Source: an uncultured Syntrophorhabdus sp.
GTDB taxonomy: Bacteria > Desulfobacterota > BSN033 > UBA1163
NCBI GenBank assembly: GCA_964599175.1
Contig: CAZREE010000003.1
Coordinates: forward strand, 1-38,157
Direction of reading: 5' to 3'
DNA: 38,157 nucleotides
Positions 3,804 through 16,568 of this stretch are shown piece after piece. The notes beneath the pieces were generated by a model. The model was not told the DNA's origin, made no database searches, and saw only the letters and a program-made list of their open reading frames with translations. Made by a program: the position numbers and the translations under genes. The stretch's first letter is position 1, and the number at the start of each line of letters is the position of its first letter.

Positions 3804-4790
3804 TTAAATCCCTGATTCTCCCTCTGAAGAATTCGATTCTGATGAAACAGGCAGATCGGATGAGGTCGTGGGTTCTGAGGGAGCCCCGGCCGCGGCGGCA
3901 GGTTGAGGCTTTTCCCTTCGTTGTCTTGGACGCCAACGGGGTTTTTGGGGGGGGCGTTTCTTTTGAGATTTTCTCTCTAACAAAACCTCCCTCTCTTTCA
4001 ACTCTTTTAATTCTTCTATCTTCCCCTTTCCCTCCTCTTTCCCGAAACCGACGACCACATAGGTGCCGCTTCTGGCATCGGTCCGGAGATGAACGACCCC
4101 CTCTTTTTCGGCATCCTCCAGAAGGTCACTGAAGGTCCGGTAGCCGTGGTAGGACTCATTGAAGGAAGGTTTCTTTCGTTTGATGGTCTCTTTCACCATA
4201 GAGGACCAGAGAACTTCCTTGTTTTCGCGGACGAGGGCCACGACGGAATCGACCAGGAGTTGAAATGCCTCTCTTTTCTTCTCGGGCATATCCTTCTCAA
4301 TTTTTGGAGGCGTGCCGATCGATCTTTCCAGATCTTCGTAGTAGATAAATTCGTCGCAGTTATCGACCAAAAGGTTGGAGCTGGATTCTTTCATCCCCAA
4401 ACCGATGGCCCGCTTCCCGTTCTCCTTCAGTTTGGAGACGAGGGGGGAGAAGTCACTGTCGCCGGAGACGATGACAAAGGTGTCGATATGCTCCTTCGAA
4501 TAGCAGAGGTCAATGGCATCGACACAGAGCCGGATGTCCGCGGAATTCTTTCCGGTCATCGCCCGCTTCGGGATCTCGATCAATTCGATGGCCGCCTCGT
4601 GAAGGGGCTTCTTATACTCCGCATAATCGGCCCAATCGGCATAGGCCTTCTTGACGATGATCTTTCCCTTCTCGACCAGTCGTTCGAGGACCTTCTGAAT
4701 GTCGAAGCGCTTGTCCTTCTTCCCCCTGAATCCAAGGGCGAGGTTCTCAAAATCGATGAAGACCGCCAGGGTATGTTCAGCTTCAGCCAT
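3804..4790 (-). CDS. NYN (LabA/DUF88) nuclease-fold protein with C-terminal OST-HTH/LOTUS-like domain and basic Pro-rich tail
   Basis: ATG at 4788-4790 is preceded by AGGAGA. The NYN core is LAVFIDFENL...TGKNSADIRL...VIVSGDSDFSPLV. The OST-HTH-like part is FNESYHGYRTFSDLLEDAEKEGVV. The 427-aa ORF-track version adds 99 unsupported N-terminal codons. Confidence 0.75.
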   Translation of the reverse strand: MAEAEHTLAVFIDFENLALGFRGKKDKRFDIQKVLERLVEKGKIIVKKAYADWADYAEYKKPLHEAAIELIEIPKRAMTGKNSADIRLCVDAIDLCYSKEHIDTFVIVSGDSDFSPLVSKLKENGKRAIGLGMKESSSNLLVDNCDEFIYYEDLERSIGTPPKIEKDMPEKKREAFQLLVDSVVALVRENKEVLWSSMVKETIKRKKPSFNESYHGYRTFSDLLEDAEKEGVVHLRTDARSGTYVVVGFGKEEGKGKIEELKELKEREVLLERKSQKKRPPQKPRWRPRQRREKPQPAAAAGAPSEPTTSSDLPVSSESNSSEGESGI

Positions 4791-5090
4791 TGTCTCTCCT
4801 TTCTTATAAAACATCCTACAATCAAACGACGGATTTGTAAACCCCCTTATTTTACCAGCCGTGTATCGCTTCACTCTTCCGTAGTAAATTACTCGCAATC
4901 GCGTAGAACTGCCTGCTGGCAGCCATTGAGAGACCACGTGTGCACGGCATGAATAATTGCTTGCGTATGAAAGTCCCTTACAGGTCTTTATGACAGAAAG
5001 GGTTATCTGATTTAATCTCCTGCACTTTAGTCCAAATAGAGAGCTAAAAATTGAAAAGAAGCGAAAAAGTGTTGACAAAATTAACAATAT

Positions 5091-5337
5091 GGTGTTGATA
5101 TTTTCAACGCTTAAATTTGTTTATAATTTAAGCATTTAAGACGATTTTCACCTACAATAGTGTAGAAAAATTAAGCAAAATAAGATTAAATCCTTTAAAA
5201 ATAAAATATTAAAATATTCTTTTTTAGCTTCTAACATATTGTAATTACTTATAATTAAATTATTTATAAAAAAATATTTAAATTTTGGCTCGTTTCTTGA
5301 GAATAGAAATAAGTGAGAACATAAAAATTAAAGCCAA
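5091..5337. promoter_or_regulatory. very AT-rich divergent intergenic region (candidate promoter/operator region for the GcvH-like array and/or the NYN gene)
   Basis: Long A/T runs, visibly far more AT-rich than flanking genes. TTGACA at 5072-5077 is followed by TGnTGATAT-like at 5093-5101. Small inverted repeats: gcttaaatt/aatttaagc (5109-5133) and ctaca/tgtag (5152-5166). Confidence 0.35.
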
Positions 5338-5367
5338 ATGGAGCAAGAAGAAAGAGAGGTGAGCAAA

Positions 5368-5529
5368 ATGGTTATTATCTTAGTTGCCTTAACATTCATC
5401 GTAGCGATCCTTGCAAAGGTCATCATTCAGTTTCCGGCTCAAAAGAGAGTGAGCGCCAGAGTTGAGCCTGAGAGGGAGTGGATGGTCATTTCTCCGGTAG
5501 CAATGATGCCTAAGGGCATGAGAGCCTGA
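5368..5529 (+). CDS. small single-pass membrane protein, a truncated duplicate of the N-terminal anchor of the next gene
   Basis: ATG5368 is preceded by GAGAGG. The start MVIILVALTFIVAIL... aligns with MVVLLVGFTFIGAIL... of the 5558 gene at both protein and DNA level. May be a relic rather than functional. Confidence 0.4.
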   Translation: MVIILVALTFIVAILAKVIIQFPAQKRVSARVEPEREWMVISPVAMMPKGMRA

Positions 5530-5557
5530 GGCGATCCATCAAGAAAGGAGGGGAAAA

Positions 5558-6250
5558 ATGGTTGTTCTCTTAGTTGGCTTCACATTCATCGGTGCAATTT
5601 TGGTGGCAGCGATCCTACGCCATCGGGCTGAGAAAAGAGAGGTGTTGAGGGTAGGGGCAGAAAGGAGCTGGGAGGCTGGTCCGGTAGCAGTGGTGTCTCA
5701 TTTTGAAAGGATGCCCCTGTTTCCCAAAGAGGTCTACTATCATGATGGACACACCTGGGCAAGGCTTGAAGAGGGCGATAAGGTAAGAGTGGGTCTTGAT
5801 GATTTCACTCAGCAGGTAATGGGGGATATTCAGGACATTGAGATTCCCAGGGTTGGTACTTATTTAAATCAGGGGGAGGCGGCCTGGAAACTTCGCCATG
5901 ATAAGAGGAAATTGAGCCAATTGGCTCCTCTGGGTGGAACAGTCGTGGAGGTAAATGAAAAACTGATGAAAGATCCTTCTCTTGCTAACCGTTCTCCTTA
6001 TGAAGAGGGATGGGTTCTGAAGATTGAACCGAAAGCTCTCGGCGATGAGATGCCGAAATTGATGGACTCCTTTCAATTTAAGATGCATTTTGAGCAGGTT
6101 AAGGCCAAGTTGATCTCCTCCTTGAATGACGAGGCAGTGGGCAGAGTCTATGCGGATGGAGGAGAGTTGATAAAAGGCGCTTCAGCCAAATTAGACGATC
6201 GTTTATGGAAGATATTGGTGACCCAGTTATTCCATTCCAATCCAGATTGA
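5558..6250 (+). CDS. membrane-anchored GcvH-fold (glycine cleavage H-like / single hybrid motif) protein, paralog 1
   Basis: GGAGGGG RBS and an N-terminal TM helix. GcvH-like blocks are YYHDGHTWARLEEGDKVRVGLDDFTQ and APLGGTVVEVNEKLMKDPSLANRSPYEEGWVLKIEP. The canonical ESVKA lipoyl motif is replaced by RHDKRK. Confidence 0.7.
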   Translation: MVVLLVGFTFIGAILVAAILRHRAEKREVLRVGAERSWEAGPVAVVSHFERMPLFPKEVYYHDGHTWARLEEGDKVRVGLDDFTQQVMGDIQDIEIPRVGTYLNQGEAAWKLRHDKRKLSQLAPLGGTVVEVNEKLMKDPSLANRSPYEEGWVLKIEPKALGDEMPKLMDSFQFKMHFEQVKAKLISSLNDEAVGRVYADGGELIKGASAKLDDRLWKILVTQLFHSNPD

Positions 6251-6275
6251 TGAAAAGAAGAAGGGGGGTTTTCCG

Positions 6276-6971
6276 ATGGACGGTTTCAGTTACGTAGACA
6301 TCTTTGCAACGAAACAATTTGAATATCTGCTTGTGATCAGTTTTTTGCTTCTCTTTATTCCTTTCATGAGGTATTTGAACAGACCAGCGAGAGCAGTCTT
6401 TGAGGCCGCTGAAAAAGTGGTTCCTGCGATCAGCGCATGGTTTCGGCTTCCAGAGGAGTACTATTATCACCTTGGGCACAGTTGGGCCGTTCCAGAGAGT
6501 AAGCATGTGGTGAAGGTAGGCATGGACGATTTCGCTCAAAAACTGGTGGGAAAAATCGATGTGATTCAGCCCCCCCCCATTGGGTCAACCTTGAGTCAAG
6601 GGGAAAAGGGGTGGGCTTTAAACGTAGATTCAAAAACTCTTGATATGCTTTCACCGGTAGACGGAAAAGTTGTGGCCGTCAATGAAGAGCTGGTTAAATC
6701 GCCTGAAAACATCAATAAAGACCCTTACAACAATTGGCTGGTGAAAGTTGAAGCCCCTCGATTTTCAGTCAATAAGAGGCAGTTGTTTCATGGAACCATG
6801 GCGAAAAAATGGATTGAAGAGGTAAGGGAAAATCTTCTTTCGAGGATGAATTACAATCTTGGTACGGTCTATCAGGATGGAGGGATACTGGTTGACGGCA
6901 TGGCAAAAAATCTCGATCGAGAAAAGTGGAATGAGATCGTCAAAGACTATTTTTTGGTTTCGGAAGCTTAA
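6276..6971 (+). CDS. membrane-anchored GcvH-fold protein, paralog 2
   Basis: N-terminal TM helix (YLLVISFLLLFIPF). GcvH-like blocks are YYYHLGHSWAV...VKVGMDDFAQ and SPVDGKVVAVNEELVKSPENINKDPYNNWLVKVE. It shares the C-terminal VYQDGG tail with paralogs 1 and 3. Confidence 0.7.
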   Translation: MDGFSYVDIFATKQFEYLLVISFLLLFIPFMRYLNRPARAVFEAAEKVVPAISAWFRLPEEYYYHLGHSWAVPESKHVVKVGMDDFAQKLVGKIDVIQPPPIGSTLSQGEKGWALNVDSKTLDMLSPVDGKVVAVNEELVKSPENINKDPYNNWLVKVEAPRFSVNKRQLFHGTMAKKWIEEVRENLLSRMNYNLGTVYQDGGILVDGMAKNLDREKWNEIVKDYFLVSEA

Positions 6972-7051
6972 AACAGTTGCTTTGGCCCTAATAAAAAGCC
7001 GTGAAGATCATCAATAAAACATATTAGGGTGAAGAAGAGGTGGATCAGAAA

Positions 7052-7933
7052 ATGAATGCATCCCAGAAAATGGAAAGTGACCAACTCATACCCAAGAAAG
7101 AACTAAAGTGTGTCTGGATGACTGCGGGTTTCATCTCTTATAAACTCTGCAAATATGACCTGCAGTGTGAGAAATGTCCTCTGGATTGGGAACTCAGGAA
7201 CCTCTCTACGTCTCCCTCTTTTGGTTCAACAGTCTCTACGGAAGCGAAAAATCGGAGACCGAGAGAGACGGGGCCGACTCCTCTATTGGAAAAGGAAGGA
7301 GAAGAGGAAGGGGAGACAGGGGGAAGGGAGACCCCTTCCCATTTAAACATAAAAGGATCCCTTTTTTACCATCCTGGGCATACCTGGATAAAGGTGGAAA
7401 AGGCTGATGAAGTCCGGGTGGGTATTGACAATTTCTTGGGAGGATTGATAGGGAAAGTCAACGCCGTTGTGCTTCCTCTATCTGGAAGGCGGTGTATGCG
7501 GGGAGAGCCCCTCTGTTCAATTATCCAAGAAGAGGGGATTGTGGATATTATTTCCCCGGTCAGCGGATCCATTCTTTCGGTCAACAAGAAATTGAAAGAC
7601 CATCCCGAGTTGATCAGTCAGGACCCCCTGGGAGCAGGGTTTTTGCTGACCCTGAAACCCAAAGATTTTCAGCGAGACCAAAAAAACTTATTCTTTGGAG
7701 AAGAGGCCTTTTCCTGGTGCCGCAAAGAATGGGAACGTTTTAAAGAGGCTGCCATTTCAGAGCTTCACCATGGGCAAGAGCGGCTTGGTATGACCATGCA
7801 GGACGGAGGGATAAAACTGAGAGATATAAAAAAATTAATTGAACCGGAGCGATATATTCGGCTGATTAACGCCTTTCTGCGAAAAGAAGTAGAAAAATCA
7901 TACCCTTTTAAGCCCAAAAGTGATTTTAACTAA
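7052..7933 (+). CDS. GcvH-fold protein, paralog 3, with a Cys-rich N-terminal module instead of a TM anchor
   Basis: ATG7052 with GAGGTGG about 9 nt upstream (GTG7040 also possible). N-terminus has CVWMTAGFISYKLCKYDLQCEKCP, then an acidic linker. GcvH-like blocks are FYHPGHTWIKVE...VRVGIDNF and SPVSGSILSVNKKLKDHPELISQDPLGAGFLLTLKP. No Lys at the lipoyl position. Confidence 0.65.
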   Translation: MNASQKMESDQLIPKKELKCVWMTAGFISYKLCKYDLQCEKCPLDWELRNLSTSPSFGSTVSTEAKNRRPRETGPTPLLEKEGEEEGETGGRETPSHLNIKGSLFYHPGHTWIKVEKADEVRVGIDNFLGGLIGKVNAVVLPLSGRRCMRGEPLCSIIQEEGIVDIISPVSGSILSVNKKLKDHPELISQDPLGAGFLLTLKPKDFQRDQKNLFFGEEAFSWCRKEWERFKEAAISELHHGQERLGMTMQDGGIKLRDIKKLIEPERYIRLINAFLRKEVEKSYPFKPKSDFN

Positions 7934-8336
7934 GCATCCGACCTTGACATCACTCTCTCATGAGAGCCATAAAGCCCCCCTCTATCAGAACATATAACAT
8001 TGTTCTCAAACACCCTGACAGGTAGGGCGAAAGGCCTGCTATTCCTCACCATCTCTAATTCCCCCTTTCATTTCCCTATACAGAGCTCTGGATTGCGGAG
8101 TTGTTCAGCACTTACTGTCCTCGAAGTTCAATCGGGAGTGAAGAAGAGGGAGGAGGAAAAGACCCACCATTTTCAAACATCTTTAAAAATTTTCATTTAT
8201 CACTTAGGTTTCAACGACCTTACGGTCAGAAAACTCAACAAAGGCTCTGTTTTCGCAAATTGACAGGTTAGGGGAATTATAGTATTTTTAATCACATAAA
8301 GAGGTTAGAGAATTAGGAGTTCCCCTATTATGTTTA

Positions 8337-8564
8337 CCTAAATTGAGCGATTCACCCTATCTCACAAGGGAGCCAGAGATGCCACAAACCCTTTTAGAAT
8401 GCGATACATTGAAGGATAGGGCAATAAACCTTAAGGGTTCACCAAACAGGTGATCATTGAACAGGCCTCATGGTTCATTCAACCTATTAAAGGTAATCGC
8501 TCTAAAAGGCTTTTCGGCCTCTCCGCCTCCCTTGTGAGGGGTGAAAAAATCGCTCAATTTAGGG
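8337..8564. repeat. 228-bp long imperfect palindrome (MITE-like element or structured RNA)
   Basis: Left arm cctaaattgagcgattcaccctatctcacaaggga (8337-8371) pairs with the reverse complement of 8528-8564. Blocks of 16 and 11 nt match exactly. Weaker complementarity continues inward (gccagagatgcc..ccttttaga vs tctaaaagg..ggcctctccgcc). Confidence 0.7.
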
Positions 8565-8585
8565 TTTAAAAATTGATGAGGATGG

Positions 8586-11063
8586 TTGTTGGTGAAAGAG
8601 CTTCTACCCCTTGTCTCAAAACCAGTCAGGTATCTGGGCAGGGAGATCAATTCAATCAGAAAAGATCCCTCCGAAGTTAGGCTGAGATTGTGCCTCGCTT
8701 TCCCGGATGTCTATGAAGTGGGCATGTCCCACGTCGGAATTCAGATCCTCTATCATATCCTCAACGAAAGAAAAGAGATTGCGTGCGAAAGGGTCTTTGC
8801 TCCCTGGGTCGATATGGAGAAGGTCTTAAGGGAGAAGAGAATTTCCCTGTCCTCTCTTGAGTCGTCCACTCCTCTGGGTCAATTTGATATCCTCGGCTTT
8901 TCCCTCCAGTATGAACTCTGCTTCACCAATGTCCTCAACATGCTCGATCTCTCCGGAATCCCTCTCTTTTCAAAGGATCGCGACGAGCGATTTCCTCTCA
9001 TCATTGCCGGAGGCCCGACCGCCTTTAATCCGGAGCCCGTTGCCGATTTCTTCGATGCCATTGTGATCGGAGATGGTGAAGAGGCGGCGCCTGAGATCTG
9101 CGATGTCGTCCTCCAATGGAAAGAGTCTCATGGGAAAAAAGGCGATCTCTTAACCTCGCTCTCTAAGCTGAAAGGCGTCTATGTCCCAGGCTTTTCTTAT
9201 GGCCATAAGGTTGAAAAGAGGGTTGTTTCTGACCTCAACCTCGCCCCTTTTCCCACCTGCCCCATCATCCCGTTTATGAAGGTGGTTCACGACCGGCTTA
9301 ATGTGGAGGTCGCCCGGGGTTGCAAACGGGGTTGCCGTTTCTGCGAGGCAGGGTTTATCTACCGACCTTATCGGGAGAGAGAGCCGAACGGGATTCAGGA
9401 GATTCTCATTGCCGGATTGAAACAGACAGGCTACGAAGAGATCTCCCTGCTCTCTCTCAGCGCGGGAGACTATTCCTCCATCGGGCCCCTTCTTTCGAAT
9501 CTGATGGACCGGTTTGAGCCGAAGCGGGTGGCGGTCTCTTTTCCGTCATTGAGGATTGAGAGCATCGTCGGCCGTCTCGCAGGGGAAGTGAAACGGGTCC
9601 GCAAGACAGGGTTCACCATTGCTCCCGAGGCCGCAACGGAACGGCTCCGAAAAGTGATCAATAAAGAGTTGGACGAAACCGTTCTCTTTCAGGGAGTGAG
9701 AGAACTATTCTCCATGGGCTGGAAGAATCTGAAGCTTTACTATATGATCGGTCTTCCTACAGAAAGGGAAGAGGACGTCAGGGGCATCCTCGACCTCTCC
9801 AGGAGGATCTCATCTCAAGGAGAACGTCAGAGGATTCACCCCCAGATCAGCGTTAGCGTCTCCACCTTTGTGCCCAAACCCCATACCCCCTTTCAGTGGG
9901 AACCGCAACTTTCTCTCAACGAGATGAAAGAGAGACTCCAATTTTTAAAGGAGAATTTGAAGAAGAAAAACCTTCGTCTGAAGTGGCAGGATCCTCATCT
10001 CAGTCTCCTCGAGGGGGTCTTTTCAATGGGAGACCGAAATCTATCGAGAGTCCTGGTCGAGGCCCATCGGCTTGGATGCCGGTTCGATGGCTGGAGCGAC
10101 CAGTTCCGTTATGACCTCTGGGAAAAGGCATTTGAGAAGGCCGGGCTGGAGATGACCGCCTACACCCGGAAGAAGGGATTTGAAGAAACGCTTCCCTGGT
10201 CCTTTATTGAAACAGGAATCAGAACGGACTTTCTATGGAAGGAGTATCAGAAAGGATTGGAGGAAGAAGTCAGCCCTCCCTGCACGGCAAAGGAGTGCCG
10301 TCGCTGCGGCCTCTGTGACGGAAAGGATATCGCCGTAAGGGAAGGGCGTCCCATGGAACTCCCTCCCTTAACAAAAGGGGAGAGGAGTGAGATTCGAAGG
10401 AAGGGGCTCAGGACAAAATTCCGCTTAGCGTTTGTGAAAAGAGGGGAGATCCGGTTTGTCAGCCATCTCGAATTAGCGCACCTCTTCTACCGGTCCGCCA
10501 AGAGAGCCGGGCTTTCGCTTCACCACTCCGAGGGATTTCATCCAATGCCGAGGATCGTCTTCGAAAAGGCCCTTCCGGTGGGGGTGGAGAGTCTGAGGGA
10601 GATCGTTGACATCGAATTGGAGGGAAGACTCTCATCAACGGAACTGATGGAGAAGCTCAATCAGAGCCTTCCGGAGGGGATTGAAATCATTGAAGTCAGA
10701 GAAGTCCTGTTCCCGACGGCTTCTTCATCTCTTCCGCATCGGTCGGCCTACCGGATTTCACTGGATCATCTCCTCTCAAAAGGAGAGGCGCAATCGAGGC
10801 TGAAAAAGGCGATGGAGAAAGGAGAACTCTTCATCCTTCAGGAGAGGAAGGAGAAGGAGAGGAGGATCGATCTTCTGCCCCTGATCGAGAGGGTTGAAGT
10901 GAAGGAGGCAACGGGAGATCCGGATCAAGAGACCGGCCCTGTTTTAGAACTCGTTCTAAGAAGCTTCGAGGGAAAGACAGCCAAACCCCATGAGGCAGTC
11001 GGAGCCCTGTTGGGTCTACAGGGAGAAGCGCTTGCACAGTGCAGAATCATCAAGGTAGAATAA
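8586..11063 (+). CDS. B12-binding-domain radical SAM protein (TIGR03960-like) fused to a DUF2344/TIGR03936-like C-terminal domain
   Basis: 825-aa ORF with radical SAM motif VARGCKRGCRFCEAG (CxxxCxxC). The N-terminus LPLVSKPVRYLGREIN is typical of this family. The C-terminal third (FVKRGEIRFVSHLEL...) resembles the radical-SAM-associated domain. It lies directly upstream of rng, as in many genomes. Start is TTG8586 or GTG8592. Confidence 0.75.
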   Translation: MLVKELLPLVSKPVRYLGREINSIRKDPSEVRLRLCLAFPDVYEVGMSHVGIQILYHILNERKEIACERVFAPWVDMEKVLREKRISLSSLESSTPLGQFDILGFSLQYELCFTNVLNMLDLSGIPLFSKDRDERFPLIIAGGPTAFNPEPVADFFDAIVIGDGEEAAPEICDVVLQWKESHGKKGDLLTSLSKLKGVYVPGFSYGHKVEKRVVSDLNLAPFPTCPIIPFMKVVHDRLNVEVARGCKRGCRFCEAGFIYRPYREREPNGIQEILIAGLKQTGYEEISLLSLSAGDYSSIGPLLSNLMDRFEPKRVAVSFPSLRIESIVGRLAGEVKRVRKTGFTIAPEAATERLRKVINKELDETVLFQGVRELFSMGWKNLKLYYMIGLPTEREEDVRGILDLSRRISSQGERQRIHPQISVSVSTFVPKPHTPFQWEPQLSLNEMKERLQFLKENLKKKNLRLKWQDPHLSLLEGVFSMGDRNLSRVLVEAHRLGCRFDGWSDQFRYDLWEKAFEKAGLEMTAYTRKKGFEETLPWSFIETGIRTDFLWKEYQKGLEEEVSPPCTAKECRRCGLCDGKDIAVREGRPMELPPLTKGERSEIRRKGLRTKFRLAFVKRGEIRFVSHLELAHLFYRSAKRAGLSLHHSEGFHPMPRIVFEKALPVGVESLREIVDIELEGRLSSTELMEKLNQSLPEGIEIIEVREVLFPTASSSLPHRSAYRISLDHLLSKGEAQSRLKKAMEKGELFILQERKEKERRIDLLPLIERVEVKEATGDPDQETGPVLELVLRSFEGKTAKPHEAVGALLGLQGEALAQCRIIKVE

Positions 11064-12725: not shown

Positions 12726-12754
12726 GGCCTATTCAAAAAGAGTAAATAAATTAT

Positions 12755-12798
12755 TTTGTTGACAAATTGAACTTAATTTATTATTTTATATCAACAAA
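12755..12798 (+). promoter_or_regulatory. candidate promoter/operator of the HTH-ImmA gene
   Basis: TTGACA at 12759-12764 with a TATTTT-like -10 17 nt downstream. An 8-bp inverted repeat tttgttga (12755-12762) / tcaacaaa (12791-12798) brackets it. Confidence 0.3.
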
Positions 12799-12836
12799 TG
12801 TTTAAAATCATAACATATTTTCCCAGCCCTAAATAA

Positions 12837-14027
12837 ATGGACACCTTAATAGGCAAAAAACTTAAAGAATTACGGGAAGTTAACGGATATACTCAGGAAG
12901 AAATCTTCCGTATCACTGGAATTAACCGAAGTAAACTTAGCCAGGTTGAAAATGGGAAGATGAGGATATCCAATGAAGAGCTTTACAGGATATCCAGGCT
13001 TCTTGGCCAACCCCTCGAATACTTTTTTGAAGAGGAAGAAAAACCTGCCGGCAACGTTCTCCTGTTTAGGGCAAAGGGTTCTCTTGATCAAGAAGACTTG
13101 GAGCTCGTGAAGCATTGCCGGGAGATAGGAATAAACTACACTGAACTTGAGGAATTAATATCCGAAGAAAACATCCACCCGGACTTTCGCACCTATTCAT
13201 ATCCATCCAATGTCCCTTTTTCTAATATAGCCAAAACAGTTGCCCGAAAGGAACGTCAATCTCTAAAATTGGGTCCAAGTGATCCCGTGCCGCTTAGATC
13301 GATTCTTCAGGAGCAAGGGATATTGGTACTTGAAATCAGTTTCAAATCAGACACACTGGATGGGTTTTTCTTTATCCATGATAAACGACCTGTGATCATT
13401 GCAAATGCCCATAACAAAAACCCATTTTCAAGGAATTTTGTCATTGCTCATGAATTTGCACATGTGCTTCTGGATAGCAGTACTCTTTCACGCTTTTGCA
13501 ATTCGATTGAGAAATCCGAAGAGGTTGTTGAGAAACGTGCGAATTTCTTTTCGAACGAATTTTTATTGCCCGAAGAAGCCCTCGAAATATATTTCAGTGA
13601 ATGTGGATATACAAAAGGGAAATCGAAAATCCAGAAGTATGATCTTTACTACCTGATCGATCATTTTCAATTAAGTAGAGAAATCGTTCTCAATCGCCTG
13701 TTCTTTACCGGATGGATCTCCGAGGACGAAAGGGGTAAGTTCCTGGAAATCGATGGGATTGCCAAGGATATGGAACGAATGGGGTTTTCGAATGAATATA
13801 CCCGATATTACATAGACCGGAAAGAAGACGAAACGGTCTCTGAATATCCCATCTTTAACATGCTAACCGAGCGATATCGGTTCCTGGCCAAGACCGCATA
13901 CACGACATCTAAGATCACTTTTGGAAAGCTCAGCGAATATTTATTTCTCCCCAAAGACCAGATTGAAATCCTCTTCGGAATTGGGAAGAAAGAGCCAACC
14001 GTGGAGGAAGTTCTTGGGTTGTCTTAA
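12837..14027 (+). CDS. XRE-family HTH fused to ImmA/IrrE (M78, COG2856-type) zinc metallopeptidase
   Basis: N-terminal HTH LKELREVNGYTQEEIFRITGINRSKLSQVENGK. HExxH motif VIAHEFAHVLLD followed by ANFFSNEFLLPEEAL, typical of ImmA/IrrE. Confidence 0.8.
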   Translation: MDTLIGKKLKELREVNGYTQEEIFRITGINRSKLSQVENGKMRISNEELYRISRLLGQPLEYFFEEEEKPAGNVLLFRAKGSLDQEDLELVKHCREIGINYTELEELISEENIHPDFRTYSYPSNVPFSNIAKTVARKERQSLKLGPSDPVPLRSILQEQGILVLEISFKSDTLDGFFFIHDKRPVIIANAHNKNPFSRNFVIAHEFAHVLLDSSTLSRFCNSIEKSEEVVEKRANFFSNEFLLPEEALEIYFSECGYTKGKSKIQKYDLYYLIDHFQLSREIVLNRLFFTGWISEDERGKFLEIDGIAKDMERMGFSNEYTRYYIDRKEDETVSEYPIFNMLTERYRFLAKTAYTTSKITFGKLSEYLFLPKDQIEILFGIGKKEPTVEEVLGLS

Positions 14028-14589
14028 TGTAATCATTGATTCAGATATTATCTTCCTCCTTGTCTCCATTCAAAAACATCACTATTTCAATCTTATTAAA
14101 ACTGCTCTCAAATGGCAGATTATTATCTCCCAGGAAATCGATGGAGAGATCGAGGATCCGGTTTCTTCTTCGGTGAAAGAGAAATTGGTAAAAGAAGGTG
14201 TCTGGGAATATTTCTCTCCAGCCGATCTCCAGCAAGAGAAAGCAATCATGCGAAAATATAATGACCTCCGAAAAATCATACACAAAGGAGAAGCCAGTTG
14301 TTACGCCATTGCCTATTGTGCGGGTTTTTCGGTGTTATCTCACGATCATGAAGCAAACCGTCTGCTCCCCTTGGAGATAAGGGAAAAAGTCAAATGGTAT
14401 TCTTTTTATGAGATGCTTTATCTTTTGAACAGAGAGAAGGCAATCTCGGAACAAGAAGCAGAGGAGTGTATAAAATCATTAGGCCAGATTCCAACTTTCA
14501 CACTTCCGGTAGCAATTCGGCAGGGAGGATTCTCCGAAATTAAAGGGATTTTTAACAAGAAATATTCCCCCCGAAATATTACCGAGTAA
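14014..14589 (+). CDS. PIN-like nuclease-fold protein (possibly DUF4411-type), putative toxin partner of the HTH-ImmA gene
   Basis: The frame overlaps the end of the previous gene. TTG14014 lies 6 nt after GGAGG. N-terminus is VIIDSDIIF (PIN strand-1 Asp). Later acidic positions are QEIDGEIED and GEASCYAIAY...VLSHDHEA (PIN-like helix plus Asp). Start uncertain. Confidence 0.55.
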   Translation: MGCLNVIIDSDIIFLLVSIQKHHYFNLIKTALKWQIIISQEIDGEIEDPVSSSVKEKLVKEGVWEYFSPADLQQEKAIMRKYNDLRKIIHKGEASCYAIAYCAGFSVLSHDHEANRLLPLEIREKVKWYSFYEMLYLLNREKAISEQEAEECIKSLGQIPTFTLPVAIRQGGFSEIKGIFNKKYSPRNITE

Positions 14590-14733
14590 AGCGGCGCGTG
14601 TTTCAGCGGTTCAACTCCTATCAACCACGTCCTCTCTTCTTTAAAAGACGAACCTTTCCATTGCTCCCCTCTGCAAATTGCAGACTATTTACTGATCACT
14701 GGCCTTTTATCACTAACCACCTTTCTTAAAAAA

Positions 14734-14762
14734 TTGCCATAAACCCAAATTTTTGGTATAAA
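14734..14762 (+). promoter_or_regulatory. sigma70-like promoter
   Basis: TTGCCA (14734-14739), 17-nt spacer, TATAAA (14757-14762). Confidence 0.45.
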
Positions 14763-14863
14763 GGAGTCGCTCGCCGGGTTAGAACGGATCCGAGAAACTC
14801 AAGGTTGGGATTGAAAACAAAGCTTGTAAGGACACGGGATATGATTCTGGAATAGTAGCCATT

Positions 14864-15271
14864 GTGAAAAAGGCCGGGATTTCGTACCCATGTGCGGTGC
14901 TCTCAAAAGTGCGCACTGTGAGTGGCACTGAAGATCACCTGCCGATGCTCGATTTTCGCTGTTCGATATCAGGTGTAAATCTTATCTCTCTCCAGCGGGT
15001 TGCCATGCGACCCCTTGATTGCCCTTGGGTGATCATTGAGTCAGAACAGTCATACCATTTGCTTGGGGCGTCATTGATAAGTGATAGAGAATTGACGAAA
15101 TTTTTCGGAAGAGCAATCCTGCTTGGTCCGCTTGTGGATAGGAACTACGTCGCCCATCAGCTCATAAACGGAAATGCGGCACTCCGCGTCGTAAATGCAC
15201 CCAGCGGGACTGGATTGAAGACCCGAATGACGACCTTCCCACTTGACACGTGGGAGAATTCGATTCAGTAA
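14864..15271 (+). CDS. hypothetical protein (orphan, no recognisable domain)
   Basis: 135-aa GTG-start ORF about 100 nt downstream of the 14734 promoter. Its composition is more protein-like than the overlapping minus-strand ORF 15071-15358. Confidence 0.3.
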   Translation: MKKAGISYPCAVLSKVRTVSGTEDHLPMLDFRCSISGVNLISLQRVAMRPLDCPWVIIESEQSYHLLGASLISDRELTKFFGRAILLGPLVDRNYVAHQLINGNAALRVVNAPSGTGLKTRMTTFPLDTWENSIQ

Positions 15272-15350
15272 ATAGTTTTCAGAAGAGTGAGCTTTCCAAG
15301 ATATCCTTTGGGCTGGTTGAGTCACAACAGAAATTTTATAGGAGCATAAG

Positions 15351-15596
15351 ATGGTCAAACGTACACCGCTGGTATGTCAACAGTTGGAAAACATTTCACG
15401 AGAAGCCTTAGGAAAATATCAGGATATCATCCGGCAGTATGTTCGACGGAGGCATGGAGTCTACGCCCTTTATCGGCGAGGGAAAATCCACTATGTCGGC
15501 TTGGCCAGCAACCTTCGATCTCGGCTCGCACGTTATCTTAGAGACCGGCATCAGAACTCATGGGACCGGTTCAGTGTTTACCTGGCTGCAGGTTGA
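15351..15596 (+). CDS. GIY-YIG nuclease-like protein, apparently C-terminally truncated
   Basis: TAGGAG RBS. GVYALYRRGKIHYVGLASNLRSRLARYL matches the GIY...YIG...R motifs. The ORF stops about 45 aa after GIY, before the expected catalytic Glu region. Confidence 0.45.
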   Translation: MVKRTPLVCQQLENISREALGKYQDIIRQYVRRRHGVYALYRRGKIHYVGLASNLRSRLARYLRDRHQNSWDRFSVYLAAG

Positions 15597-15687
15597 CAGA
15601 ATAACTTCATTTCTTCCGTTATACTGTGTTAAAATGAAAAAATATGGACGTGTATGAATAAGTCATAAGATTTTGAAGGGTGAAATC

Positions 15688-16014
15688 ATGACAAAAAAAC
15701 AGATTAACGAAGCTGTCCAAGAATTGAAGTTGAAACTCCGAACGCTGTTCGGAGAAGACATCGAGTTGAAGTTATTCGGTTCTGCGGTGCGAGGCGACTA
15801 CAGGAAGCATTCGGATATTGATGTTCTGGTTTTGCTGCCGCGAAGGGTCAATAATGCTATAGAGGAGAAGGTTTTCGATGCAGCTTACGACATCGAACTA
15901 AGACACGGTGTCATCTTCGGGATCATTGTTTATGCAAGAGAATTCTGGCGCTCGGAGGTGGCAGGGAGTATGCCCCTTTATCAGAATATCGAGAGAGAAG
16001 GCGTCGCCGTATGA
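15688..16014 (+). CDS. minimal nucleotidyltransferase (MNT/MntA-type antitoxin)
   Basis: LFGSAVRGDYRKHSDIDVLVLL matches GSxxRG...DxD of the pol-beta superfamily. It overlaps the next gene by ATGA. Confidence 0.8.
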   Translation: MTKKQINEAVQELKLKLRTLFGEDIELKLFGSAVRGDYRKHSDIDVLVLLPRRVNNAIEEKVFDAAYDIELRHGVIFGIIVYAREFWRSEVAGSMPLYQNIEREGVAV

Positions 16015-16409
16015 AAGAGGAGTTGATTCGTTACAGGCAGAGAAAGGCGCGGGAAACCTTAGAGGATGCTGACTTGCTCTTTCATTCAGGCAGATTGTTT
16101 TCAACATTGAACCGCATCTATTATGCCCTGTTCTATGAGGTTGTGGCACTTTTTTTGACCGCAGACCTTTCCTCGGCCAAACATACGGGTGTCCGTGCCC
16201 TGTTCAATGAGCATTTCGTTAAGTCAGGAAAGGTTCCTGTGGAGTTAGGCCGATTTTACTCCAGAATATATGACTTTCGACAGAAGGGCGATTATGGGGA
16301 TTTTGTAGAATTTGAGAGAGAAAAGGTGAAAGAGTGGCTTGACCAAGCCTCTATGTTCCTGGACGAAATGGATAAGATAATCAAAAAGGAAACGAAAGCA
16401 TATCAATAA
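16011..16409 (+). CDS. HEPN domain protein (HepT-type toxin partner of MNT)
   Basis: 132 aa, helical, translationally coupled to the MNT gene. HEPN-like blocks are AKHTGVRALFNEHFV and DFRQKGDY. Confidence 0.7.
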   Translation: MKEELIRYRQRKARETLEDADLLFHSGRLFSTLNRIYYALFYEVVALFLTADLSSAKHTGVRALFNEHFVKSGKVPVELGRFYSRIYDFRQKGDYGDFVEFEREKVKEWLDQASMFLDEMDKIIKKETKAYQ

Positions 16410-16568
16410 CAATATCCTTCCGATGGCAGGGAACGTTCTTAAGTTATTTAAGAAACTTTAATGCCCATCTCTTTCTATGGCCCTTATATGCTTTCTGGGA
16501 ATCGTAATCGAAGCCATTCCGAAAGGGTTTTTGCCAAGTGTGGTCATAAAACTGAAATTCCAGGAAAT

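Follow-up and report, generated by a model that had tools for sequence, protein, structure and literature searches.

The window analysed here is the whole 38,157-nucleotide (nt) stretch of contig CAZREE010000003.1 from an uncultured Syntrophorhabdus sp. Four open reading frames (ORFs), all on the + strand, form an array at window positions 5368-7933. They are a small ORF and three genes that we call G1, G2 and G3. A first-pass annotation of the sequence had placed three full-length genes and a short ORF here, and our ORF calls agree with it. We argue that the G proteins may be non-lipoylated, cytoplasm-facing subunits with the fold of the glycine-cleavage H protein (GcvH). They would serve as adaptor or regulatory subunits of a membrane redox system governed by sigma-54, surviving in this lineage as a reduced cassette. 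We give this reading a probability of about 0.5. It builds on direct observations of the genes, their fold, the non-conserved lysine, the synteny, the conserved promoter and the purifying selection. What is undescribed is the architecture, context and regulation; the fold itself is a known one. The first-pass annotation had recognised no described function for such an array, and a full-text literature search likewise found no paper describing the family.

Fold, lysine column and tail

The GcvH-like barrel noted at first pass is confirmed, because profile matches and structure superposition both point to it. Hidden Markov models (HMMs) for Pfam GCV_H match all three proteins (E = 3.9e-25 for G1, 7.9e-22 for G2 and 2.2e-19 for G3). 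The AlphaFold models have a mean predicted local distance difference test score of 78.5 for G2 and 72.7 for G3, and it exceeds 90 in the core of both. These models superpose on the H-proteins 1onl_A, 3hgb and 3a8i_E with a template-modelling (TM) score of about 0.9, a root-mean-square deviation (rmsd) of 1.3-1.7 A and 26-34% identity over about 125 residues. Foldseek gives E = 6e-12 for the GcvH match of the G2 model and E = 9.5e-13 for 1onl_A with the G3 model (TM-score 0.92, rmsd 1.6 A). The motifs GxDDF, SP..G and SPY..GW are common to the array proteins and GcvH. In pea H-protein structures (S/T)xxHEW lines the cleft for the lipoyl arm. YYHxGHxW stands in its place here, and it is invariant in the family along with GxDDF and the DGG of the C-terminal tail.

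Membership of the fold does not make these proteins H proteins by score, since all three fall below the NCBIfam cut-offs. Against TIGR00527 (cut-off 115.85 bits) G1, G2 and G3 reach 88.4, 64.7 and 67.8 bits, and against NF002270 (cut-off 117) they reach 96.4, 81.8 and 73.0. NF045810 (GcvH_rel_desulf) gives 28-32 bits for a cut-off of 150, and TIGR03077 (not_gcvH) 49-57 bits for a cut-off of 144.

The lipoyl-lysine column was read from a gap-free alignment of the hairpin to the GcvH of T. thermophilus and M. tuberculosis. It holds Lys in 7 of 17 G1 orthologues, the rest having Glu, Asn or Gln. All 17 G2 sequences have Ser in the column and Lys at the next residue (DSK), and G3 has Glu. The Cys-rich distant relatives have Gly (RRNG[ED]) in 59 of 59 cases and never Lys. 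This orthologue alignment upholds the degenerate site that the first-pass annotation had read as Lys, Ser with Lys at the next residue, and Glu in the three paralogues. Because the column varies across orthologues, classical lipoylation is unlikely, as had been proposed, and the scores far under the NCBIfam GcvH cut-offs support this too. The column is not conserved, therefore the family as a whole is not centred on a lipoyl-lysine. Among the annotated ORFs of the whole 38-kb window there are no gcvT, gcvP, lipoate-ligase, lipoate synthase or Hdr genes, so the earlier remark that no gcvT/gcvP, lipoate ligase or Hdr gene is adjacent holds.

The barrel is followed by a helix, a flexible loop and two more helices, and in G1-G3 the loop carries (V/T)(Y/M)xDGG. 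This helical tail of about 65 residues had been flagged at first pass for its DGG motif, and it proves to be specific to the family. The D and the following G are invariant in 67 G1, G2 and G3 sequences, and 111 of 129 family members contain DGG. A tail-only profile searched against 1.84 billion representatives retrieved 116 clusters, and the tail was always C-terminal to a GcvH-like domain. The tail is thus ruled out as an independent known domain, as it was never found on its own by this profile. The isolated G1 tail matches no Pfam or NCBIfam family, and PDB sequence and Foldseek searches returned nothing beyond the GcvH core. Ubiquitin-like exposure of a C-terminal GG by cleavage was also considered and rejected, since the chain runs on past the GG in every member and what follows DGG is conserved; the idea survives only as an improbable element of the signalling alternative weighed below.

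The first-pass annotation had proposed N-terminal membrane anchors. Hydropathy and positive-inside charges support them for G1 and G2, but in hydropathy analysis G3 has no hydrophobic segment and carries a Cys4 motif instead. The small ORF and G1 are strongly hydrophobic over residues 2-20, with no charge before this stretch and a cluster of Arg and Lys after it; the small ORF reaches a maximum hydropathy of 3.09. G2 has a transmembrane segment at about residues 17-31, followed by Arg residues. The positive-inside charges point to cytoplasmic GcvH-like domains. G1 would be an N-out/C-in signal-anchor protein, and the GcvH-fold domains of G1 and G2 would both face the cytoplasm. A fusion protein provides an independent check of this topology: P0317 has a four-CXXCH cytochrome c domain of periplasmic type, then a G2-type anchor (FATKGVEYLLV), then a G2-like domain.

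The short ORF had been taken for a truncated fourth copy. It is instead a conserved gene of 53 codons, 43% identical to residues 1-53 of G1 (BLASTP, E = 6e-10). Its orthologues precede G1 in seven other loci (L003, L006, L018, L086, L087, L090 and L093), and it is kept ahead of G1 even in relatives whose G1 is just 58% identical. The Cys motif of G3, LKC[VI]WMTAGxxSYKLCKYxLQCxxC (C-x12-C-x5-C-x2-C), does not vary among orthologues, and distant relatives have two copies of it. The motif probably binds a metal or an Fe-S cluster. The isolated N-terminal Cys-rich regions of G3 and of the type B relatives described below match no Pfam or NCBIfam family, and the G3 motif has no PDB structure match.

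Conserved operons, control region and the reduced cassette

Relatives were sought by scanning one genome per GTDB species. This gave at least 417 loci, and in 85 of them the neighbouring ORFs were compared to reference proteins. Nearly all the 417 are in metagenome-assembled genomes (MAGs) of Desulfobacterota/Thermodesulfobacteriota (including Syntrophorhabdus, Syntrophaceae, Desulfobacteraceae, Desulfarculaceae and Desulfatiglans), with a few in Nitrospinota, Deferribacteres, Planctomycetes and others. For G1 and for G3, metagenomes contain hundreds of full-length homologues apiece, all unnamed or labelled "glycine cleavage system protein H". Among the 85 loci a sigma-54 response regulator is a neighbour in 72, a Peptidase_M54 archaemetzincin in 71 (162.6 bits with NCBIfam archmetzin, cut-off 145) and a histidine kinase in 67. 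Loci with an NrfD-family gene number 26, those with a four-cluster ferredoxin gene 25. gcvT/gcvP and lipoate ligase/synthase are not among the recurrent neighbour clusters of these loci.

Type A loci (L001-L018, L087 and L090) are nearest the window. Their order is small ORF, G1, sometimes a second small ORF, HmcB-like, HmcC-like, G2, G3, kinase, regulator, M54. The Fe-S protein has an RRSFLK twin-arginine translocation (Tat) signal and a C-terminal transmembrane helix, and it scores best with HmcB (341 bits). The NrfD protein scores best with HmcC (411 bits), and HybA and HybB come next. In the full operons G2 and the 3' end of the HmcC-like gene overlap, which puts G2 where hmcD follows hmcC in Desulfovibrio. 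HmcA cytochrome, HmcE and HmcF are found neither in the window nor in the close full operons; only two variants approach them, L091 (cytochrome c3 and DsrMK-like genes) and L092 (a cytochrome fusion). The second small membrane ORF (31-49 residues, MVPIFVILT...) lies between G1 and the HmcB-like gene (L090 5890-5985; L002 3671-3820; just after the G1 stop in L003, L006 and L087), and it is missing from the window along with the HmcBC-like genes.

Type B loci (Desulfobacteraceae and others) are the commonest architecture and have no HmcBC-like genes. A PAS-PAS-GAF kinase, the regulator and M54 are followed by an intergenic region and one gene for a protein of about 309 residues, with two Cys4 motifs, a GcvH-like domain and the tail. 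Among the 85 loci, methylenetetrahydrofolate reductase (MTHFR) is near 13 and giant HdrA/NfnB-like flavoproteins are near 32, as type B neighbours. The kinases of the two types differ. A type A kinase (L003 12772-14508) has a predicted periplasmic sensor with CIVCH (CXXCH) and a Cys/His-rich CFTADCHDH, which suggests a haem-c-based periplasmic sensor of redox state or of a ligand, whereas type B kinases are cytoplasmic PAS-PAS-GAF proteins.

Fusions and variant operons extend the pattern. P0243 is a receiver (REC) domain fused to a G2-like domain with the tail. Its locus (L091, 1-10299) reads NrfD-G2-REC-G-G3-like-MTHFR-DsrM-like-Fe-S protein-cytochrome c3-DUF5981, so MTHFR is directly behind three GcvH-like genes. 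It also has a small Fe-S protein, and M54, regulator and kinase are on the opposite strand. DUF5981 is PF12225, which we take to be the former MTHFR_C/MetV domain. A full-length acetate-CoA ligase (AcsA) carries a C-terminal G3-like GcvH-fold domain with the DGG tail but without Cys4 in four cases (L001 12682-15294, L012 13573-16050, P0295 and P0255), and the gene is directly after G3. The GcvH-like domain and its tail would thus behave as a portable output or docking module, placed on membrane anchors, receiver domains or enzymes in energy-metabolism neighbourhoods.

The first-pass annotation had asked whether the array keeps a fixed partner gene across genomes. The answer is strongly positive for the HmcB/HmcC-like pair, the kinase, the sigma-54 regulator and archaemetzincin, but these partners are missing from the window. 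The same reduced layout, with a near-identical spacer between G1 and G2, is present in three other assemblies: L086 (G1 88% identical), L089 (G3 about 85%) and L093 (at least 90%, a second NCBI MAG). L093 also has the same housekeeping flanks as the window. Because these assemblies share the layout, the absence of the partners is real and lineage-wide. The next-closest relatives, L090 and L087, carry the full operon. Since the partners are conserved elsewhere and missing here, the array is a reduced derivative of a larger conserved system. The spacer resembles a fusion of the Shine-Dalgarno region after G1 with that before G2 in full operons (L090, L003, L006 and L087). This is consistent with a clean excision that would have kept the translation signals of G2.

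Selection was judged for G1, G2 and G3 by the ratio of nonsynonymous to synonymous substitution rates (dN/dS), for which the small ORF offers too few substitutions within the lineage. Within the reduced lineage dN/dS is 0.18-0.25 for G1, 0.155-0.16 for G2 and 0.24-0.28 for G3. Against the full-operon relative L090 it is 0.21, 0.11 and 0.23. The values are similar, therefore selection has not been relaxed. With the intact layout in four assemblies they lead us to reject a pseudogene remnant. The history of the cassette may differ from that of its surroundings. Its GC content at third codon positions (GC3) is 0.47-0.50, and that of the flanks is 0.54-0.69. The cassette with its control region (4884-8014) is 93.7% identical in nucleotides to L093, and the flanking housekeeping genes are 81-89% identical. 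This suggests recent horizontal transfer or recombination of the cassette. If so, the full operon, or at least the regulator, may lie elsewhere in the genome of the window.

The AT-rich control region that the first-pass annotation had described as dedicated is real. A 270-nt upstream region aligns across seven loci whose G1 proteins share 58-88% identity. It has three conserved blocks, TTAAGCATTTAAGA at about 5128-5141, AGTGTAGAAAAATTAAGCA at about 5159-5177 and CTAACATATTGTAATTAC at about 5231-5248. An A/T tract, the promoter element, a conserved ribosome-binding site and ATG 5368 follow. This alignment places the start of the small ORF at ATG 5368, as the ATG at 5338 is upstream of both the ribosome-binding site and this codon. 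The promoter-like element is of the sigma-54 type with -24 and -12 boxes (TGGCTCG-N4-TTGAG) and stands 66 nt before the start of the small ORF. It recurs at the matching position in L086, L006, L090, L087, L003 and L018, and type A loci have a conserved variant, TGGCTCGTTTCTTGA(G/T/A), with TTGA at -12. This conserved upstream region with its promoter element accounts for the dedicated control region noted at first pass. No sigma-70 consensus promoter was found in 5100..5367.

The distant loci make the case for sigma-54 more plainly. Of the 65 non-type-A loci, 46 have the canonical pattern TGGCA[CT]-N5-TTGC[ATC] no more than 300 nt ahead of their first GcvH-like gene. About 0.003 matches are expected per locus, and only 18 further matches occur in the 1.7 Mb of both strands of those loci. 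The GcvH-like genes of the distant loci are therefore sigma-54 targets of the adjacent regulator. Since no activator gene lies in the window, we can only infer that the array of the window genome depends on sigma-54 as well.

Weighing the explanations

We propose the following scenario. The sigma-54-type promoter most likely drives a single transcript for the small ORF, G1, G2 and G3. The H-protein barrel, with its remodelled YYHxGHxW cleft and DGG-loop tail, would be a protein-docking or regulatory module at the inner membrane face, and none of the three would be a lipoyl carrier. In the ancestral state the G proteins would have been cytoplasmic partners of a Tat-exported four-cluster ferredoxin (HmcB-like) and an NrfD-type quinone-interacting subunit (HmcC-like), with G2 standing where HmcD otherwise does. 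The neighbouring histidine kinase and sigma-54 response regulator, co-encoded with archaemetzincin, would switch on the whole unit. In the window lineage the HmcBC-like genes would have been lost and the cassette would stand apart from its regulator, still under selection. Topology, complex formation, the adaptor or regulatory role and sigma-54 dependence here all belong to the conditional part of this scenario.

It must be said that several findings weigh against it. No HmcB-like, HmcC-like, kinase, regulator or M54 gene, nor any remnant of one, was found by tblastn in the 38-kb window (all E > 0.1). No gene for a sigma-54 activator (enhancer-binding protein) was found in the window; of 85 related loci, 72 have one as a neighbour. 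At -12 the window has TTGA where the canonical element has TTGC. The partners in the full operons are under the NCBIfam equivalog cut-offs, HmcB-like with 341 against 420 bits and HmcC-like with 411 against 550. The likeness of G2 to HmcD consists of gene position and weak or faint precomputed Pfam DVU_0533 (PF28260) matches in orthologues, and the local Pfam scan gave no match. The DGG loop and the N-terminal Cys domain of G3 have low model confidence. Finally, all 17 close orthologues of G2 keep the DSK lysine, which stands one residue away from the canonical position.

It is worth considering what else could account for these proteins. They might form a signalling or feedback module, the dedicated output of the kinase and sigma-54 regulator. 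They would then be stress effectors, or substrates or adaptors of archaemetzincin that are cut at the DGG loop, and the HmcBC-like pair would be an add-on of one clade. The commonest architecture fits this well, as it has kinase, response regulator and M54, a sigma-54 promoter and one GcvH-like gene but no HmcBC-like genes. The most constant neighbours are the regulator (72/85) and M54 (71/85), and L072 retains just M54 and a GcvH-like gene. A receiver-domain fusion exists, the DGG loop is flexible in both models, and the window lineage has no adjacent HmcBC genes while selection on it is undiminished. However, the protease-substrate relation is conjecture, M54 is missing from the window, and the GG is never terminal (a median of 26 conserved residues come after the motif). 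Membrane anchors on two of the three paralogues, and the fusion of one anchor type to a periplasmic cytochrome elsewhere, fit a membrane complex better than a soluble signalling protein. We consider the signalling module unlikely, though it deserves to be kept in view. Less likely still is that G2 carries a prosthetic group on a lipoylated or acylated DSK lysine, as a membrane-tethered dithiol/disulfide or acyl relay comparable to LbpA in the sHdr system. Apart from its invariance in close orthologues, this lysine has a counterpart in 4 of 7 distant G2-like proteins (at the same position in L030, L049 and L075, shifted in L060). Hdr-type flavoprotein, DsrMK-like and MTHFR genes adjoin some related loci, and AcsA, an adenylate-forming enzyme, is fused to G3-like domains. 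Against this, the lysine is one residue off the canonical column, and LplA recognition of E2 lipoyl domains needs exact placement of the lysine at the hairpin tip. L076, L081 and L060 have T or R at the G2 lysine position. There is no conserved Lys in G1, in G3 or in all 59 Cys-rich relatives; lipoate ligase and synthase were not found in the window or among recurrent neighbours; and the scores are far under the GcvH cut-offs. Lipoylation of G2 thus seems unlikely even with an invariant shifted lysine, and we regard the carrier role as a doubtful proposition.

The array could also be the decaying, non-functional leftover of an operon, as all the partner genes are missing from the window and its composition (the GC3 values given above) differs from the flanks. 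Yet four independent assemblies show intact ORFs in one and the same layout, and dN/dS (0.16-0.28) is on par with the full-operon comparison. The ribosome-binding site of G2 is kept at the junction and the promoter region is conserved. Decay is very improbable on this evidence. Automated annotation would have the proteins be ordinary glycine-cleavage H proteins, on the strength of their Pfam GCV_H matches and the source label 'glycine cleavage system protein H'. We give that virtually no credence. The conserved lipoyl-lysine is missing, the scores are under the TIGR00527 and NF002270 cut-offs, and anchors, Cys4 motif and tail are extra. There is no gcvT/gcvP nearby, and the synteny is with unrelated genes.

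Our preferred reading, adaptor or regulatory subunits in a reduced redox cassette, leads to a wider one that we offer only tentatively. The proteins with a GcvH fold and a DGG tail could be the cytoplasmic working parts of an unrecognised energy-metabolism or redox-signalling system of the Desulfobacterota, with its own kinase, sigma-54 regulator and archaemetzincin, and with a lipoate-independent use of the H-protein fold. In one version of that system they would dock cytoplasmic oxidoreductases onto an Hmc-type quinone module; MTHFR and Hdr-type flavoproteins recur as neighbours, and MTHFR is inside the L091 operon. In another version the G proteins would be activated by proteolysis or phosphorylation. 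Under either version the GcvH-fold trio can work as a stand-alone cassette. The reduced cassette is a natural experiment, in which selection maintains GcvH-fold proteins in the absence of neighbouring HmcBC-like genes.

The consequences go beyond this window. Hundreds of Desulfobacterota genomes label these genes GcvH. Metabolic reconstructions that count them as GcvH are wrong, because the genes lack the lipoyl-lysine and the glycine-cleavage context. The family is tightly tied to a sigma-54 two-component system and to archaemetzincin, a protease family for which we know of no bacterial role, and in one clade also to an Hmc-type quinone module. That MTHFR and Hdr genes recur nearby points to a part of anaerobic energy metabolism, or of its regulation, that is still uncharted. 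If true, the family would clearly exemplify reuse of the H-protein fold without the swinging arm.

Window features and comparison with known systems

Features of the array and its control region, in window coordinates
Feature	Position	Strand	Details
Conserved AT-rich control region upstream of array	5100..5367	+	Seven-locus alignment; GC content 0.40
Sigma-54-type -24/-12-like element TGGCTCGTTTCTTGAG	5286..5301	+	GG at 5287-5288; -12 = TTGA
Small ORF, 53 aa, predicted single-pass membrane peptide	5368..5529	+	Transmembrane ~residues 2-20; paralogue of G1 anchor and linker
G1, 230 aa	5558..6250	+	Signal-anchor residues 2-20; GcvH-fold residues 59-175 (nt 5732-6082); YADGG loop nt 6149-6163
G1-G2 spacer, 25 nt	6251..6275		Junction where close relatives hold second small ORF and HmcB-like/HmcC-like genes (~2.3 kb)
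G2, 231 aa	6276..6971	+	Transmembrane anchor ~residues 17-31 (FATKxxEYLLVI); GcvH-fold residues 63-182 (nt 6462-6821); DSK hairpin; VYQDGG nt 6867-6884
G3, soluble	7040..7933	+	Cys4 motif residues 24-46 (nt 7109-7177); acidic linker; GcvH-fold residues 109-224 (nt 7364-7711); TMQDGG nt 7793-7810

The start of G3 is GTG 7040 (297 residues), which the orthologue alignment favours, or ATG 7052 (293 residues). The divergent neighbour of the array (3804-5087, - strand) encodes an NYN domain (PIN-like RNase) and OST-HTH/LOTUS with a low-complexity, basic and Ser-rich C-terminus. It has the same position in L093, and its listed TTG start is probably too far upstream.

Other parts of the window differ from L093. 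A long imperfect inverted repeat at 8337-8563, just upstream of the start of a radical-SAM gene at 8586, has perfect outer arms of 16 nt and inner arms of 38 nt that are 84% complementary. The only matches from an Rfam scan of 4900-8700 were to plant miRNAs and below threshold, and these reflect this long hairpin. The 228-nt element is also in L093 (87% identity) at another position relative to the neighbouring sequence, which suggests a small mobile palindromic element like a miniature inverted-repeat transposable element (MITE). The roughly 3.8 kb at 12726-16553, between the RNase G gene and the L21/L27/Obg block, are unmatched in L093, whose gap at this place measures about 340 nt. This segment has a lower GC content (0.42-0.46) and includes an HTH_XRE + Peptidase_M78 (ImmA/IrrE-type) gene at 12837-14027. 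It is likely an inserted mobile or prophage-derived segment. At 1004-1841 a metallo-beta-lactamase-fold gene (1066-1845) has no L093 counterpart between the CT_A_B and Kelch genes, so there was a lineage-specific insertion or deletion.

Comparison with known systems begins with GcvH itself (PF01597, TIGR00527), with which the array shares the barrel-sandwich fold. The array differs in having no conserved lipoyl-lysine, in the YYHxGHxW cleft, in the DGG tail, in the anchors or Cys4, in the lack of gcvT/gcvP and in the control that we attribute to sigma-54 and a two-component system. LbpA of the sHdr system is likewise GcvH-like, works outside glycine cleavage and is encoded beside redox-complex genes. 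It keeps the lipoyl-lysine, is lipoylated by dedicated ligases, is soluble and is linked to hdrC1B1A-hyp-hdrC2B2 (PMC6067878). The window array shows none of its lipoyl-lysine, sHdr genes or dedicated ligase. The HdrA/NfnB-like flavoproteins near some distant loci are of another type than sHdr and accompany MTHFR.

A divergent paralogue of the H protein, GcvH-L of Staphylococcus and Streptococcus (PDB 5a35), has a role outside glycine cleavage; structurally it matches less well (E = 1e-5 to 1e-6). It is both lipoylated and ADP-ribosylated, and it is encoded in an operon with a macrodomain protein, a sirtuin and LplA2. GcvH-L has no anchor, Cys motif or DGG tail. The N-terminal domain of RnfC, and NqrA, put a cofactor-less fold of the biotinyl/lipoyl type on the cytoplasmic side of a membrane redox complex. 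The RnfC chains 8ahx_C and 9eri_C are weak Foldseek matches (E about 0.3) with no detectable sequence relationship and with other partners and architecture, so the likeness is one of analogy only. The nearest relation on the membrane side is the Hmc complex of Desulfovibrio (HmcABCDEF), with HybA/HybB behind it, in that order of score for the full-operon partners. The cytoplasmic side here is held by GcvH-fold proteins, and the window has them without the HmcB/C-like genes.

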